Assembly: GCA_035703525.1 (NCBI GenBank)
Contig: DASSYA010000024.1
Location: forward strand, 69,309-133,308
From: Gemmatimonadales bacterium
Lineage (GTDB): Bacteria > Gemmatimonadota > Gemmatimonadetes > Gemmatimonadales > GWC2-71-9
Length of the DNA stretch: 64,000 nucleotides
Direction: 5' to 3'
The notes under the pieces were generated by a model, which saw only the letters and a program-made list of their open reading frames with translations, was not told the origin of the DNA and did no database searches. Below, one piece after another: positions 47,633-59,271 of this stretch (positions within the stretch are counted from its first letter, which is position 1; every line of letters begins with the position of its first letter). Made by a program: the position numbers and the translations under genes.

Positions 47633-47653
47633 GGGCGGGAAGATAGAGGGAAA

Positions 47654-47712
47654 GCGAGAGAGCGAGAAAGCGTGAAGGCCATGAAAGCCTTCTCGCCTTC
47701 TCGCTGTCTCGC
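47654..47712 (-). terminator. Long imperfect hairpin after macB-like stop (putative intrinsic terminator)
   Basis: 26-nt arms (47654-47679 and 47687-47712) with 23/26 complementary positions and a 7-nt loop CATGAAA. It starts 5 nt after the TAA at 47717. On the minus-strand RNA the stem is followed by UUUCCCUCUAUCUUCCC. The arms are built of GCGAGANA-like octamers. Confidence 0.45.
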
Positions 47713-47716
47713 TGTC

Positions 47717-48931
47717 TTACTCGTACCGCAGTGACTGGATCGGGTCGAGGCGTGCGGCGCGGCGCGCCGGCCACATCCCGAAGAAGAGGCCGACCACGGC
47801 GGAAAACCCGAAGGCCACGACCACGGCCGTCGGCGAGATCTGGGTCGCCCACCCCAGCTTGATGGCCACGAGTCTCGACGTGCCGACCCCGAGCAGGATG
47901 CCCAGGATGCCGCCGGTGAGGCAGAGCACCAGCGCCTCGATCAGGAACTGGCTCATCACCGTGAAGCCGGTGGCGCCGAGCGCCTTCCGGATCCCGATCT
48001 CCTTGGTCCGTTCGGTGACCGACACCAGCATGATGTTCATGATGCCGATACCACCCACGAGCAGCGAGACGGCCGCGATCGAGAGCAGCAGGGCGCTGAA
48101 CGTCTTGGTGGTTTCCTCGGCCGTCGCGAGGAAGTCGCTCGGGCTCCGCATGGTGAAATCGTTTCCGGCACCCGGGCGAATGCGGTGCTCGCGCCGCATG
48201 ATCCGCTCGAGCGAGACGAGTGCCATGTCGCGGTTGATCCCGGGCCGGACCGTGACCGAGATCGTCCGGAGTCGGTCGGTCCCCATCACCCGGTACTGTG
48301 CCGTGCTGAGCGGGATCAGGATCTGCTCATCCGGGTTGGACCACCCCTGTGACCCCTTTGCGCTCAGGACGCCGATCACCTCGAACGGGATCGAGCGAAT
48401 CACGATCGTCTGCCCGATCAAGGCCCGTGGGTTCTGGCCGAGCATGTCGGGCACATCCGATCCGACCACGGCATAGCGCTGCCGTGAGGCGTTGTCACCC
48501 TCGGTGAACATCCGCCCGTTGGTGATCTCGTAGTTGCGGGCCTTCAGGTACTCCGCCGTGGTGCCCACGACACTGACATTGATGTTGGTGTTGCCCAGTT
48601 CGACCTGCTGGCGTCGCTCCATCTCTGGCGCCATGGCGTCGATCACGTCACCGGCATCCCGCTTCAGGGCGAGCGCGTCGTCGGTCTTGAGCGGCGCACC
48701 ATCGGATCGGGCCACGCCCGCGAAGCGATCCTGACCGGCGTTGATCTGGATCAGGTTCGCGCCGAGCGAGTTGATCCGCTCCTCGACCGACTTCTGGGCG
48801 CCCGTCCCCATCGCCACCACGGTGATCACCGCGGCGACGCCGATGATGACACCGAGCATGGTGAGCATCGCCCGAAGCTTGTTGGCGCGGATGCTCCCGA
48901 AGGCCACCCGCACGGTTTCGCTGAGCATCAT
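47717..48931 (-). CDS. ABC transporter permease, MacB/FtsX type
   Basis: 404 aa. N-terminal TM, a large periplasmic domain, and a C-terminal FtsX 3-TM bundle (GIGIMNIMLVSVTERTKEIGIRKALGA). Confidence 0.85.
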   Translation of the reverse strand: MMLSETVRVAFGSIRANKLRAMLTMLGVIIGVAAVITVVAMGTGAQKSVEERINSLGANLIQINAGQDRFAGVARSDGAPLKTDDALALKRDAGDVIDAMAPEMERRQQVELGNTNINVSVVGTTAEYLKARNYEITNGRMFTEGDNASRQRYAVVGSDVPDMLGQNPRALIGQTIVIRSIPFEVIGVLSAKGSQGWSNPDEQILIPLSTAQYRVMGTDRLRTISVTVRPGINRDMALVSLERIMRREHRIRPGAGNDFTMRSPSDFLATAEETTKTFSALLLSIAAVSLLVGGIGIMNIMLVSVTERTKEIGIRKALGATGFTVMSQFLIEALVLCLTGGILGILLGVGTSRLVAIKLGWATQISPTAVVVAFGFSAVVGLFFGMWPARRAARLDPIQSLRYE

Positions 48932-55798: not shown

Positions 55799-55823
55799 CC
55801 GGGAAAGCTACCGCCACTCGTAA

Positions 55824-55926
55824 GGGCGCAACATGTTGCGTCCGGGACGGCACCCCTCACGACGCGCTGGTACGCCCGGGACGGCACCCGGCGGTGCACT
55901 GGCCGGGGCGCAACATGTTGCGCCCC
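55824..55926. repeat. Twin palindromes GCGCAACATGTTGCG(T/C) plus a 17-nt direct repeat
   Basis: P1 GGGCGCAACATGTTGCGTCC at 55824-55843. P2 GGGGCGCAACATGTTGCGCCCC at 55905-55926. Centre-to-centre distance is 82 bp. Direct repeat CG(T/C)CCGGGACGGCACCC at 55839-55855 and 55873-55889. Confidence 0.7.
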
Positions 55927-56327
55927 TAGTGCACCGCCGGTTGCTGACGCGGCGGCTCCGTCACGGTGAACGGCACACGAGCCGCCTCGATACCATCGAT
56001 CGTCACCACGATCGCGTGTGGGCCGGTGCTCTGGACCGGGATATCGAGCACGATCACCCCTGGCGACACGATCTCCTCGATCCCGGGGTCGGGCTCGGGC
56101 ATGTGCATCATGCCATGATGCTCGAACCGGACCACCGAGGTCGGGTCGAGGAGCGAGAGCCCGACACGATGCTCCCCGACATCCTCGCGTCGCCCCGAGA
56201 GGAGCAGCACGAGGTGAGCGCGCGGATGGATGCCGGGCAGCTGGGGCACGACCACATGCCGCCAGATGCCGATGACCGAGAGCTTGCCCTGACTGTCGAC
56301 CAGGGCGTGGTCGGCCAGCGCGGCCAA
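55926..56327 (-). CDS. Small conserved beta-rich protein (DUF6941-like, tentative); start codon uncertain
   Basis: The coding-like part begins right after the cyclophilin stop: (L)T(I)KIALAALADHALVDSQGKLSVIGIW... The first canonical start is TTG 56327. ATC 56339 or CTG 56345 would give the family-typical N-terminus MKIAL. The upstream 70 codons of the track ORF overlap the cyclophilin gene and look non-coding. Confidence 0.5.
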   Translation of the reverse strand: MAALADHALVDSQGKLSVIGIWRHVVVPQLPGIHPRAHLVLLLSGRREDVGEHRVGLSLLDPTSVVRFEHHGMMHMPEPDPGIEEIVSPGVIVLDIPVQSTGPHAIVVTIDGIEAARVPFTVTEPPRQQPAVH

Positions 56328-56341
56328 GGCGATCTTGATGG

Positions 56342-56788
56342 TCAGGCCACCCGGATCGAGTTCACGACGTCGCCCTGGGCAATCTTCATCACGATGTCGA
56401 GCCCGTCGGTCACCTGACCGAACACCGTATGCACGCCATCGAGATGGGGTTGCGGCGAATGGGCGATGAAGAACTGGCTCCCGCCGGTATTCTTGCCGGC
56501 ATGCGCCATCGAGAGCGCGCCCGCCTTGTGCTTGTGCGGATTGCCCGCGGTCTCGCACTTGATCGTCCAGCCCGGACCGCCGGTCCCGACGCGCGGGTTC
56601 GACGGATCCTTCGAGAGCGGGTCGCCGCCCTGGATCACGAAGTCCTTGATCACCCGATGGAACCGGGTGCCGTCGTAGTACTCGCTGTTGGCGAGCTTCT
56701 CGAAGTTGGCGACGGTCTCGGGCGCTGCGTCGTCGTAAAGTTCAGCGGTGATGGTGCCGCGGGCAGTGTCGATGGTTGCTGTTTTCAT
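56342..56788 (-). CDS. Peptidyl-prolyl cis-trans isomerase, cyclophilin type
   Basis: ATG 56788 ([32 protein letters not shown]). [33 protein letters not shown]. Confidence 0.9.
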
Positions 56789-56789
56789 G

Positions 56790-56910
56790 GTGAGGTGTGA
56801 GTCCTGGGTCCTGAGAAGTGAGAAGTGAGAAGTGAGAAGTCGGAAGTCGGAAGTCGGTCCCAATCTAGCAGGATGTGAGATCACCTCAGGACTCGGGACT
56901 CACACCTCAC
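56790..56910. repeat. 26-bp inverted repeat enclosing a heptamer tandem repeat
   Basis: Arms at 56790-56815 (GTGAGGTGTGAGTCCTGGGTCCTGAG) and 56885-56910 (CTCAGGACTCGGGACTCACACCTCAC). 24 Watson-Crick positions, plus 2 that are G-U wobbles only on the plus-strand RNA. The loop holds 6.7 copies of a 7-mer (plus strand GAGAAGT x4 then CGGAAGT x2.4, about 56811-56857). One arm ends 1 nt before the cyclophilin ATG and the other covers the nth stop codon. Confidence 0.75.
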
Positions 56911-57553
56911 GTCTCGATGGGCAGAGCGCCGCCACCACACATTCCCCGCATTTCGGTCGATTGGCGATGCAGACGCGGCGCCCGTGCCAGATCAGCAGGT
57001 GACTCACCAGCGCCCAGTCCTCGCGCGGGACCAGCGGCATCAGCTCGCGCTCGATCTTCTCGGGATCGGTGGCCGGGGTCAGCCGCAGCAGATTGGCGAG
57101 ACGCCGCACATGGGTATCGACCGTGATTCCCTCATTGAGGCCGAAGGCATTGCCGAGGATCACATTGGCCGTCTTCCGGCCGACGCCGGGGATCGGTCGG
57201 AGTTCCGCCATGCTCCGCGGGACCACGCCCTCGTGGTCGGCGACGAGCGCCTGGGCCATCCCGATGAGCGAGCGCGCCTTGTTGCGGAAGAACCCGGTCG
57301 AGCGGATCACGTCCTCGACCTCGCCCTGCTCGGCGTCGGCCAGCGCGGCGGCCGTGGGCCAGCGCCGGAACAATTCGGGCGTGACCATGTTGACGCGCAC
57401 GTCGGTGCACTGTGCCGAGAGGATCGTGGCCGCGAGCAGTTCGAACGGTGTCCGGAAATCCAGTTCGCAGTGCGCATCGGGGTATTCCGCCTTGAGGCGC
57501 GCCAGGATCTCGTGCGTACGTGCGATGCGCGCCGCGTTCGATTCGCGTGGCAC
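56900..57553 (-). CDS. nth: Endonuclease III
   Basis: HhH-GPD motif (LRPIPGVGRKTANVILGNAF, DTHV) and 4Fe-4S cluster loop C..NRPKCGECVVAALC. The GTG start overlaps the PolX stop by 1 nt. Confidence 0.9.
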   Translation of the reverse strand: MPRESNAARIARTHEILARLKAEYPDAHCELDFRTPFELLAATILSAQCTDVRVNMVTPELFRRWPTAAALADAEQGEVEDVIRSTGFFRNKARSLIGMAQALVADHEGVVPRSMAELRPIPGVGRKTANVILGNAFGLNEGITVDTHVRRLANLLRLTPATDPEKIERELMPLVPREDWALVSHLLIWHGRRVCIANRPKCGECVVAALCPSRREV

Positions 57554-59271
57554 TACCGGCGGCGTGCGCGTGCGAAGGCGAGGAACTCCTCGGCACGGCG
57601 GCTGTTGAGGATGTCCGCCGGCCCGAGGCCGCCTTTCCGCGCGATCGCCACACCGAAGTCGACGTTGTCGAGCCCACCGAGATTGTGTGCATCCGATCCG
57701 ATCGAGATCATCACCCCCGCCGCGCGCGCGCGGCGGAGCACGCGCCAGTCGAGATCGAGTCGGTGCGGATCGGCGTTGATCTCGATCCCCACCCCGGCCC
57801 GGCCAGCGGCCTCGAAGAGCTGGTCAAGGTCGACCGGGTACCCTTCGCGCGACAGGAGCAGGCGGCCGGTCGGGTGGCCGATCAGCGTGACATACGGCGA
57901 CTCGATCGCCCGGAGGAACCGGGATGTCATCTCGGCCTCGTTCATGGTGAAACGCGAGTGCACACTCGCGATGATGAAGTCGAATCCTGCGAGCACCTCG
58001 TCGGGATAGTCCAGGGCACCATCGGCGAGGATATCGCTCTCGATGCCCTTGAACACCGTGATGCCGAGGTCCAGCGCGTTGACCGCATCGATCTCGTCCC
58101 ACTGACGTCGGATGTCGTCGGCCTGCATGCCGCCCGCGTACGCCGCCGAGCGCGAGTGATCGGTGATGCCAAGCCACTCGTACCCCGCCGCCCGCACGCC
58201 GCGGGCGAGTTCCTCGACGGAGTTGGTGCCATCGGAGTAGGTCGTGTGACAGTGGAGGAATCCTCGCAAGTCACGCCGGTCGAGCAGCGTCGGGAGGGGC
58301 CGATCGAGCTCATCACCATTCTCGCGCAACTCGGGCGGGATCCACGGGAGCCCGAGCGCGGCGTAGAGGGTCTCCTCGTCGGGTGTGGGCACGAATCGAC
58401 TGCCCTGCCAGAGCGCCGTCCCTGCGAGCGTGAATCCGCGCGCTTCGGCCTGGGCCGTGAGCCGGGCCAGGTGCCCCGCATTCCCGGTGGCCTGCACAAG
58501 TACCGCCCCGAGATTCTGGGGTGGCGTCACCACGACCTGGACCGGAGCACCGCCCTGAAAGCGCAGCGTCGCACGCCGCTCGTCCTGCCCGGCGACCTCG
58601 CTCACTCCCACCCCGGCCCCGATCGAGCGGAACACCTCCGCGGGCGCGACATCGGCGACCACAACGAGGATCTGCTCCTGAACCACCTCGTCCCGCCGCC
58701 GGACGGCACCCGCGGGATGCACCGCCAACACATGCGGCTGCGCCGACAGGGCGTCCGCAATCGCTGTCGCCTCGTCGCGGGCGTGATGCGCCAGACGCCA
58801 GACCGAGGCGGCCCGCAGGAAGGCGATCGCCTTGAGGACGTTCTCCGCCGTGCGCGCGCCGAAGCGGGGCAGGGCGGCGAGACGACCATCGCGGGCAGCG
58901 GCCTCGAGTTCAGGCAGGGTCTCGATCCCGAGCCCTTCGTGGATCTGTCGGATCTTCGCGACGCCGAGTCCGGAGATGGCCAGCATCTCGACGAGTCCCG
59001 GAGGCACCGCCTCGCGCAAGGACTCGAGCAACGAGGAACGTCCGGTGGTGACCAGCTCGGTGATGACCTCGAGGATGGCTGGACCGATACCCTTGGCTTC
59101 GGCGAGACTGCCATCCGCGATGGCGGCCTCGAGTTCACTCGGGAAGCCTTCGACGGTCTTCTCCGCGGTGCGGAACGCCCGAACCCGGAACGGGTTCTCT
59201 CCCTGCAGTTCGAGATAGGAGGCGATGCGTTCCAGCGTCACCGCCACACCCTTCCGGTCCATCATCGGCAT
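57553..59271 (-). CDS. polX: Family X DNA polymerase with C-terminal PHP domain (PolX)
   Basis: N-terminal 8-kDa/HhH region (FRVRAFRTAEKTV, GIGPAILEVITE, GLGVAKIRQIHE). PHP motifs (FLHCHTTYSDG, ITDHS, ASVHS, IGSDAH). Confidence 0.9.
   Translation of the reverse strand: MPMMDRKGVAVTLERIASYLELQGENPFRVRAFRTAEKTVEGFPSELEAAIADGSLAEAKGIGPAILEVITELVTTGRSSLLESLREAVPPGLVEMLAISGLGVAKIRQIHEGLGIETLPELEAAARDGRLAALPRFGARTAENVLKAIAFLRAASVWRLAHHARDEATAIADALSAQPHVLAVHPAGAVRRRDEVVQEQILVVVADVAPAEVFRSIGAGVGVSEVAGQDERRATLRFQGGAPVQVVVTPPQNLGAVLVQATGNAGHLARLTAQAEARGFTLAGTALWQGSRFVPTPDEETLYAALGLPWIPPELRENGDELDRPLPTLLDRRDLRGFLHCHTTYSDGTNSVEELARGVRAAGYEWLGITDHSRSAAYAGGMQADDIRRQWDEIDAVNALDLGITVFKGIESDILADGALDYPDEVLAGFDFIIASVHSRFTMNEAEMTSRFLRAIESPYVTLIGHPTGRLLLSREGYPVDLDQLFEAAGRAGVGIEINADPHRLDLDWRVLRRARAAGVMISIGSDAHNLGGLDNVDFGVAIARKGGLGPADILNSRRAEEFLAFARARRR

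Follow-up and report, generated by a model that had tools for sequence, protein, structure and literature searches.

Heptamer arrays between nth and a cyclophilin gene of a Gemmatimonadales bacterium: a copy-variable repeat pair around a putative promoter

In a Gemmatimonadales bacterium of the lineage GWC2-71-9, the gene for endonuclease III (nth) is followed by a gene for a cyclophilin-type peptidyl-prolyl isomerase (ppi), and the junction of the two is occupied by an element of 121 bp (positions 56790-56910) whose 26-nucleotide arms face one another across a series of tandem heptamers. Both genes lie within a stretch of 64,000 nucleotides (GenBank assembly GCA_035703525.1, contig DASSYA010000024.1, positions 69,309 to 133,308) that we refer to as the window. 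An original prediction, made from the letters of the sequence, had offered three options for the element: (a) a terminator, attenuator or translational gate between the two genes, (b) a structured antisense RNA made from the plus strand, or (c) a repeat whose copy number changes the length of the loop. Our analysis reveals that the element is a copy-variable member of a family of heptamer arrays dispersed over the whole genome, and not a riboregulator specific to the locus, a conclusion that we hold with great confidence. As to the way in which it might work, we give a probability of roughly one half to a composite reading, in which the purine-rich half would be the 3' end of nth, the core the promoter of the cyclophilin gene, and the pyrimidine-rich half a variable and unstructured leader without a Shine-Dalgarno (SD) sequence, the stem forming only in read-through RNA.

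Dispersed heptamers follow one and the same strand rule, stop-proximal or start-proximal, in Xanthomonas, in cyanobacteria and now in Gemmatimonadales, and they have no accepted function; the only published rationale for them, the formation of G-quadruplexes, cannot apply to the units described here. The nth-ppi locus offers a testable case, in which the SD leader of a housekeeping gene has apparently been replaced by a copy-variable repeat, a promoter-type box is nested between the arms, and natural alleles differ only in the number of their units. If the composite reading is true, slippage-prone repeats can rebuild both the untranslated regions (UTRs) and the insulation between adjacent transcription units; if it is false, the element is one more unstable intergenic microsatellite.

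The family was characterized in the genome as a whole (3.05 Mb in 28 contigs, 67% G+C), with genes taken from a simple and crude codon-usage caller that gave 2,768 genes and 90.8% coding sequence. The loop of the element has 68 BLAST matches in its own genome, and Tandem Repeats Finder (TRF) returns 410 rows of period 7, a period that is strongly over-represented among the tandem repeats. The main units are GAGAAGC, CGGAAGT, GAGAAGT, GAGACGT and GAGTCCT. Among 292 oriented heptamer arrays, 230 are intergenic, although about 9% of the genome is non-coding. Purine-rich (R) arrays lie on the sense strand from the stop codon onward, and pyrimidine-rich (Y) arrays lie on the sense strand up to the next start codon; where two arrays are adjacent, they succeed one another as R then Y in 72 cases and as Y then R in 1, so that such pairs can fold into a hairpin. 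Within co-directional spacers the sense R arrays begin at a median of 1 nt after the upstream stop (67 of 70 are nearer the stop), and the sense Y arrays end at a median of 19 nt before the next start. The anchoring to stops is tight: 62 of 144 stop-near R arrays begin inside the stop or the last codons and another 52 within 0-3 nt after it (together 114 of 144), and solo R arrays sit at stops with about 100 nt of free spacer remaining downstream. R-Y pairs are found in 7.1% of the convergent spacers, in 2.0% of the co-directional ones and in 1.3% of the divergent ones. The nth-cyclophilin element obeys all of these rules of position and orientation. Among the stops that precede R arrays, TAG makes up 41% and TAA 8%, against 24% and 5% in the genome, and the stop is often part of the first unit.

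The view that the element is of no described kind proved wrong at the level of class. Rehm et al. (2015) reported dispersed heptamers, GGGAATC in Xanthomonas and GGGGAYT in Nostoc PCC 7120, which are present in hundreds of copies and over-represented between genes; their purine/G-rich strand is on the coding strand, 0-50 nt from the stop codon or overlapping it, and the complement is just upstream of start codons (PMC4692102). The repeats are commoner between aligned or convergent genes than between divergent ones, they form 70-75 convergent pairs, their unit number varies, and transcripts of Xanthomonas start or stop at them more often than at controls (PMC4692102). Related heptanucleotides of the cyanobacterial short tandemly repeated repetitive (STRR) type are cited there for Calothrix. 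In the tests made here the Gemmatimonadales arrays were alike in the 7-nt unit, the many intergenic copies, the positional rule at stops and starts, the convergent pairs and the variable unit number, and their pairs, too, are rarest in divergent spacers. They differ in that the units (GAGAAGY, CGGAAGT, GAGTCCY, TCACTTC) contain no run of three G and so cannot form the G-quadruplexes on which the interpretation of Rehm et al. rests (PMC4692102), in that the unit sequence is species-specific even within one genus, and in that the present pair encloses a promoter-type box and has outer arms that are a true palindrome. A preference for four units did not come to light either, no search having been aimed at it. 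Because the quadruplex feature is lacking, we file the element as a variant of the kind known from Xanthomonas and Nostoc rather than as a member of the "quadruplex-forming" family. For Gemmatimonadota, the literature that we searched describes neither repeats of this kind nor promoters nor terminators.

Repetitive extragenic palindromes (REPs) and the bacterial interspersed mosaic elements (BIMEs) of enterobacteria and pseudomonads are likewise intergenic, numerous, hairpin-forming and enriched at 3' ends, and a role in stabilising or ending transcripts has been ascribed to them; REPs reproduce a single conserved imperfect palindrome and have a link to REP-associated tyrosine (RAYT) transposases. 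The family of the present element shares the first four properties and differs in that the arms are tandem 7-mers, the arm sequence is single-copy, and the repeats beside the Y1-transposase genes of the genome are different, GC-rich ones. The element can be classed neither as a REP nor as a miniature inverted-repeat transposable element (MITE) nor as an intrinsic terminator: it has no recurring palindrome or terminal inverted repeat with a link to a transposase, and it does not combine the GC-rich stem, short loop and 3' U-tract of a Rho-independent terminator. Three Y1-transposase genes (PF01797, RAYT/IS200-like) are present in the genome (G000 C8:11798-12133, C20:32879-33223 and C6:8173-8499), amid GC-rich REP-like repeats such as GGGCGGGTAAACCCGCC and CCCACGGGTGGTCGCTCGC. 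Mobility of the heptamers mediated by RAYT was considered and rejected, these genes being flanked by their own, unrelated REPs.

Architecture, alleles and folding of the element

Both genes are read from the minus strand, which is thus the mRNA strand of the element. The features are as follows.

56900..57553, minus strand: nth, endonuclease III with HhH-GPD domain (open reading frame (ORF) list, gene caller, Pfam PF00730/PF00633); its last four codons (RREV) and stop lie in the first heptamer units
56881..56915, minus strand: R array, with units GAGACGT, GAGGTGT, GAGTCCC, GAGTCCT and GAGGTGA (direct reading of the sequence, and register); begins inside nth
56885..56910, minus strand: 5' arm (on the mRNA) of the 26-bp stem, holding the nth TGA at 56900-56902 (inverted-repeat search, folds)
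56857..56880, minus strand: unique 24-nt core TCTCACATCCTGCTAGATTGGGAC, identical in every same-species assembly that covers it
56862..56870, minus strand: promoter-type box TGC-TAGATT, of -10 or Bacteroidetes-like -7 type with an upstream TG; putative cyclophilin promoter (conservation and genome-wide distribution of the box)
56815..56856, minus strand: copy-variable part of the Y array, (CGACTTC)3 at 56836-56856 and (TCACTTC)3 at 56815-56835 (TRF, alleles in other assemblies)
56790..56815, minus strand: 3' arm (on the mRNA), outer Y units TCAGGAC, CCAGGAC, TCACACC and TCAC, in register with the variable array and invariant in all alleles
56342..56788, minus strand: cyclophilin-type peptidyl-prolyl isomerase, ppi (Pfam PF00160; start placed by homologues; no SD-like motif upstream)

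A repeat search recovers the inverted repeat as predicted, with arms of 26 nt at 56790-56815 and 56885-56910 that are complementary at 24 of 26 positions (92%) and 69 nt between them, and TRF finds the heptamers in the loop (TGAGAAG x4.1 at 56812-56840, GAAGTCG x3.1 at 56836-56857). The arm sequence has no further match in the window at up to 3 mismatches, where 100 shuffles lead one to expect 0, and in the genome it matches only itself. ORFs, gene caller and Pfam agree with the prediction that the nth stop lies inside one arm and that the other ends 1 nt before the cyclophilin ATG (56786-56788), a start that is supported by homologues beginning at the equivalent methionine. Upstream, polX and nth overlap by 1 nt. 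An ORF of 180 amino acids that would begin at GTG 56884 and run in frame with the cyclophilin through the Y array was rejected: homologues begin at the ATG, and changes of a 7-nt unit break the frame.

The picture of a stem enclosing a microsatellite needed revision. Stem and heptamers both exist; they are not unrelated parts, for the arms and the repeats of the loop share a single 7-nt register over the whole element. Read along the mRNA strand, the element consists of TC, the R array of five units, the core, CGACTTC three times, TCACTTC three times, TCAGGAC, CCAGGAC, TCACACC, TCAC, C and the ATG. It is therefore a lopsided pair, with 5 units on the R side and about 10 on the Y side; only the outer 26 nt of the two arrays mirror each other, and the six inner Y units (the former "loop microsatellite") are an unpaired surplus without a partner on the R side. 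The R array begins four codons before the end of nth, whose TGA straddles the boundary of units 2 and 3, and two of its units, GAGACGT and GAGTCCT, occur at other places of the genome as units of the family.

Alleles were compared among independent assemblies that encode exactly the same proteins as the window; the unpaired surplus has at least three. The allele of the window, with 3 + 3 units, is present in two samples; a sample at 99.5% identity has at least 4 + 3 units, both of its contigs breaking inside the array; 7 + 2 units are found in a lineage whose flanks are about 91% identical; and in a further sample, whose contig begins inside the array, a CGACCTC variant is followed by 2 units. 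Option (c), a repeat of variable copy number, is hence the one that the same-species assemblies bear out. A metagenome scan with the junction of Y arm and ATG gave 0 matches (near-identical records may lie outside the scan), and an exact-protein look-up returned no record for the Nth variant of the ~91% lineage (L124). Long heptamer arrays also make up several contig ends of the genome (G000 C1:3-107, C13:1-171, C10:162-339), which, together with the breaks inside the nth-ppi array, indicates that the arrays cause assembly fragmentation and may in truth be longer than they appear.

Arms and core are unchanged in all of these alleles wherever the contigs cover them. The comparison with the ~91% lineage gives 0 changes in 69 nt, while third codon positions have diverged by 13% (nth), 11.4% (cyclophilin gene) and 7.5% (gene for DUF6941); at the synonymous rate the probability of this outcome is about 2-4e-4, and arms and core appear to be under constraint. 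Conservation of the arms in relatives, by which the original prediction was to be judged, holds within the species group, where they are identical, and fails in other species, where they are non-homologous; a 14-mer of the core, CCTGCTAGATTGGG, is common to one genome of the same genus (G006). Among relatives at the level of the order, nth adjoins the cyclophilin gene across short spacers (8-100 nt) without arrays. Arrays or pairs occupy the nth-ppi spacer in 15 of 20 genomes of the genus; they are built from unrelated units (GACACGC, GATGATC, GTGACCA, GGGCGAG, GATGACN) and often begin inside the last nth codons. GAGAAGY arrays are present in 10 of 25 genomes of the genus and in 0 of 16 from other genera, and CGGAAGT arrays were found, in the same set, in this genome alone. 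The abutting arrays leave a trace in the protein: after a conserved CPS, the C-terminal tail of Nth varies with the array (SRQDDR, SRRDDG, SKRREI and SRQQ at the nth-ppi loci L103-L122), and in G006 a 15-residue tail, GKREGEKERKREREG, is translated from the R array. G006 has two nth-ppi loci (C27, C28); its bin contamination is 6%, and two strains may be mixed.

The element folds at -54.6 kcal/mol on the mRNA strand (z -4.1 against shuffles) and at -68.2 kcal/mol on the plus strand (z -4.7). Folding of both strands confirmed the predicted asymmetry at this locus: the two non-Watson-Crick positions are G-U on the plus strand and A-C on the mRNA strand, and the plus-strand fold is about 10-14 kcal/mol more stable. 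Over 44 co-directional pairs of the family, the sense strand is the more stable in 24 and the antisense strand in 20 (Wilcoxon p=0.97); the plus-strand advantage falls inside this symmetric spread and is therefore no evidence for an antisense RNA. Rfam 15 has no match at E<=1 on either strand of 56300-57600. A consensus scan of 56600-57100 found no site resembling an intrinsic terminator, the stem being followed by C-AUG with no U-tract and the loop measuring 69 nt; T5 tracts and classical U-tract terminators are rare in this genome.

When the Y units were permuted, the observed complementarity of the arms was reached in 0.15% of 2000 trials (P=0.0015). The family-wide test of unit order was null, 2 of 63 pairs falling at P<=0.05 where 3 are expected. 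The arms at this locus are a true palindrome and an exception to the family, in which most pairs behave as two independently slipping arrays. Copying from arm to arm as a property of the family was rejected on the strength of this test.

The box between the arms and the cyclophilin leader

A sense-strand box of the form TAnnTT or TAnAnT is found in 34 of the 38 orthologous nth-ppi spacers of at least 25 nt, and an antisense one in 2 of 38; at this spacer the sense box is conserved throughout the order. Its variants include TATATT, TAGTTT, TATTTT and TAGATT, as well as TATATTTG, TAGTTTTC and TATTTTTC. The box precedes the start codon by 22-38 nt in 27 of these spacers; its distance is greater in the window, at 73 nt, and in three genus-mates, at 56, 60 and 90 nt, and in these a Y array fills the extra distance. 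The plus strand of the nth-ppi spacer has no promoter-type box.

The distribution of such boxes over the genome is that of a promoter element. At equal A+T content, the density of TAnnTTT is 0.95 per kb in divergent spacers against 0.09 in convergent ones, and in co-directional spacers it is found 65 times forward and 4 times reverse; for TAnnTT the corresponding figures are 3.47 and 0.81 per kb, and 213 and 49. The enrichment in divergent spacers and the sense bias argue for a promoter element and not for the tail of a terminator, and an interpretation of the T-rich box as the U-tract of an nth terminator was rejected, since TAnnTTT is some 10-fold rarer in convergent than in divergent spacers. 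The nested arrangement is met again at other loci. In the loops of 43 co-directional R-Y pairs, 9 boxes are sense and 1 is antisense; within 34 nt upstream of start-proximal Y arrays the numbers are 14 and 4 (p=0.03); and in several genes a TAGATT stands 4 nt before the first Y unit. Over the whole genome (G000), TAnnTT(T) boxes are most frequent 30-50 nt and again 0-10 nt ahead of start codons, and the second peak suggests leaderless mRNAs.

The -7 box of the Bacteroidetes sigma-A is TAnnTTTG (PMC9723704) and that of Chlorobaculum RpoD is TA[ATC][ATC][AT]T (bioRxiv 10.1101/172254). The boxes of the nth-ppi spacers are like these in motif and have a promoter-like genomic distribution, whereas the box of the window itself fits TAnnTT only. 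Taken together, motif and distribution point to TAnnTT(T) as a Bacteroidetes/Chlorobi-like -7 promoter box in Gemmatimonadales, the first sequence-based evidence for such a box in this order that we found in the literature searched; that literature contains no mapped transcription starts for any Gemmatimonadota.

The observation that no SD sequence precedes the cyclophilin ATG is correct, no SD-like motif being present upstream. Genome-wide, an SD-like 4-mer is found at -18 to -3 in about 40% of genes, against 14% in the control, and about 60% are without one, as are 37 of the 50 genes that have a sense-strand Y array abutting their start; the cyclophilin gene is for these reasons not unusual here in lacking an SD. 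The argument built on an SD-like and an anti-SD-like word in the two arms is accordingly a weak one, SD-less starts being the majority and the GAGGTG/CACCTC words being heptamer units, and sequestration of an SD by an anti-SD as a special feature was rejected as non-specific. The Y half is about 65 nt long, with 44% C and 10% G, and as a leader on its own it folds at -4.8 kcal/mol, more weakly than its shuffles. Genus-mates in which the box is 28 nt from the start keep a GAGGATC SD; the same SD is lost in 4 of the 5 genomes with a Y-array leader, the window included. So open a leader would suit initiation that does not depend on an SD; in Flavobacterium, it is mRNA structure and not an SD that is reported to tune initiation (PMC6847099).

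The closest functional analogue for a variable leader is the (ATCTTTC)n repeat in the 5'-UTR of hmw1A of Haemophilus influenzae, which tunes expression (Rapun-Araiz et al. 2025; PMC12721329); expression there is inversely proportional to the number of units, and RNase III cleaves the hairpin (PMC12721329). The two are alike in that a heptamer simple sequence repeat lies between a promoter (here a putative one) and the start codon, where it would here, as there, be transcribed with the leader, has a unit number that varies among strains, and contributes one arm of a long hairpin. They differ in that both arms of hmw1A are in a single 5'-UTR, whereas here the partner arm is upstream of the putative promoter, in the 3' end of nth, and in that the gene is a housekeeping cyclophilin here and a surface adhesin there.

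Weighing the readings

Under the composite reading, nth and the cyclophilin gene would be separate transcription units. The R half would form the 3' end of a polX-nth transcript, the core with TGC-TAGATT would serve as the cyclophilin promoter, and the Y half would be a 5' leader of about 65 nt, C-rich, G-poor, unstructured and without an SD, whose length replication slippage would alter in steps of 7 nt. A promoter-type box in the loop implies that the stem can form only in RNA that reads through from nth. The cyclophilin transcript proper, lacking the R arm, would thus be open for SD-independent initiation, while read-through RNA from nth, having both arms, would form the 26-bp stem and bury the region from -2 to -27 before the ATG; such RNA might be ended or stabilised at the hairpin, or it might be barred from translating the cyclophilin, a block that a ribosome terminating at the nth stop could lift by melting the R arm. 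The element would in that case be an insulator combined with a variable leader, and not a dedicated device of the riboswitch type.

Several results weigh against this reading. A strict sigma-70 consensus scan finds no full promoter at the locus, and the TAGATT of the window fits only the relaxed forms TAnnTT and TAnAnT. A box is present in the loop of only about 19% of the co-directional pairs, so that the composite reading cannot explain the whole family. The absence of changes in the 69 nt of arms and core, observed against a single diverged lineage, is not significant at the all-site coding rate (P=0.057), and conservation of the arms does not extend to other species of the genus. The 44 co-directional pairs exhibit no sense-strand preference for wobbles over A-C mismatches and, as noted above, mirrored unit order between arms is absent family-wide (2 of 63 at P<=0.05). 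Most pairs thus bear no sign of selection on RNA pairing, and these two family-wide nulls are the strongest points against any function that depends on it.

The rival that survives best would dispense with function altogether. On a neutral or selfish view, the arrays are slippage DNA that expands until it meets constrained sequence (a stop, a promoter box, a start), the hairpin and its position have no selected role, and any effects on expression are incidental. The rapid turnover of species-specific unit families (GAGAAGY in 10 of 25 genomes of the genus and 0 of 16 outside it, CGGAAGT in this genome only), the unrelated units that different species carry in the same spacer, the differences in copy number between near-identical strains, the lack of mirrored order and of strand-specific wobble bias, and the exactness with which arrays abut functional boundaries are all as expected. 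Undirected slippage would not, however, be expected to give an orientation rule of 72 to 1, nor solo R arrays anchored at stops with some 100 nt of free spacer downstream; nor does it account well for the truly mirrored arms at this locus (P=0.0015), for arms and core unchanged in a lineage with 7.5-13% synonymous divergence, or for the retention of some array in the spacer by 15 of 20 genus-mates despite the turnover of sequence. We regard this explanation as possible and yet on the whole unlikely.

Option (a) as originally worded holds that nth and the cyclophilin gene form one transcript without an internal promoter and that the 26-bp stem is its terminator, attenuator or translational gate. 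The stem is indeed stable on the mRNA strand (-54.6 kcal/mol, z -4.1) and buries the region before the ATG, the nth stop lies in the 5' arm, where a terminating ribosome would melt the stem, relatives across the order keep nth ahead of ppi, R-then-Y pairs are over-represented at the 3' ends of genes, and classical U-tract terminators are scarce in the genome. Set against this are the sense promoter-type box between the arms here and between nth and ppi in 34 of 38 relatives, a loop that varies in length from 69 to 90 nt, the missing U-tract, and a family without sense-strand wobble preference. What survives of the option is a gate or terminator acting on nth read-through RNA, which the composite reading incorporates; its single-transcript form is weakened by the box in the loop, the lack of a U-tract and the long loop, and we consider it rather improbable.

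The composite reading could also be generalized, and the generalization strikes us as doubtful. Heptamer arrays might be modular and fast-evolving UTRs, R arrays supplying 3' ends from the stop codon and Y arrays supplying C-rich leaders that reach from transcription start to start codon and replace the SD route. Unit number would then be a rheostat, in steps of 7 nt, for housekeeping genes such as that of the cyclophilin; an R/Y pair around a promoter would be a self-renewing insulator that ends or silences only the read-through RNA of the upstream operon; and species-specific words would mean that a writer or reader evolves along with them, be it a protein or a process of templated copying.

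A role at the level of DNA, or as arrays of binding sites, has also been considered: cruciform extrusion, a hotspot of replication or recombination, or a nucleoid or RNA-binding protein that reads GAGAAGY/CGGAAGT. One unit word is found at more than 100 loci in one species and other words in its sister species, a pattern that calls for some means of dispersal or else for convergent selection of one word; equal stability of both strands is what a DNA palindrome predicts; and a conserved REP-like core stands between the arms in two genus-mates (G010 and G006). The arrays have no link, however, to any candidate protein or mobilising enzyme, the three Y1-transposase genes having different GC-rich REPs at their flanks; the arms of the present element are single-copy; and the sense-strand rule goes with the orientation of the genes, an indication that transcription or translation is involved. 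Such a role is in our judgment very unlikely.

Option (b), a structured antisense RNA from the plus strand, is hardly credible, for its one attraction, the more stable plus-strand fold, lies within the strand-symmetric spread of the family (24 vs 20, p=0.97), and the spacer has neither a plus-strand promoter-type box nor a sigma-70-type promoter, an Rfam match or arms conserved in other species.

Hairpins in neighbouring spacers and other loops

Hairpins of other kinds are found in the company of the arrays. Several R-then-Y pairs hold other dispersed palindromes in their loops, namely GTCATTGCGAG...CTCGCAATGAC, GGAGGGATCTGCAC...GTGCAGATCCCTC and GAGTACGGGCGCA.CATGTTGCGCCCGTAC (G000 C10:58361, C13:121739, C3:15261, C25:160313; C14:232333, C22:135092, C5:190883; C10:24620, C5:142114, C13:1), which indicates that heptamer arrays often flank pre-existing hairpin elements. 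In G010 and G006 (L129-L138) GAGAAGC arms stand exactly 55 nt apart around a conserved core hairpin, GCGTGGCCCAGCGGAGAGATCTCCCCGCCGGGCCACGC, the whole being a dispersed REP-like element with heptamer arms; its core has compensatory variants (GGGGCCC/GGGCCCC and GTGGTGT/GCACCAC). Elsewhere in the window, at 47650-47717, the period-8 arrays GAAAGCGA, GCCTTCTC and TCTCGCTG make up a hairpin behind a macB-like gene and are akin to the heptamer family, with octamers as units.

The next spacer downstream, between the gene for DUF6941 and an HD-domain gene (window 55799-55925), contains the twin perfect palindromes GGGCGCAACATGTTGCGCCC. In the ~91% lineage (L124:2364-2489) these are replaced by a heptamer R-then-Y pair (GAAAGAG.../...CTCTTTC), while a TAGCTT box and everything downstream of it are conserved between the window and that lineage; a third allele (L145:723-888) is 31 nt longer. 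To judge from these alleles, hairpins of different kinds seem able to replace one another in the space that separates a stop codon from the promoter box that follows.

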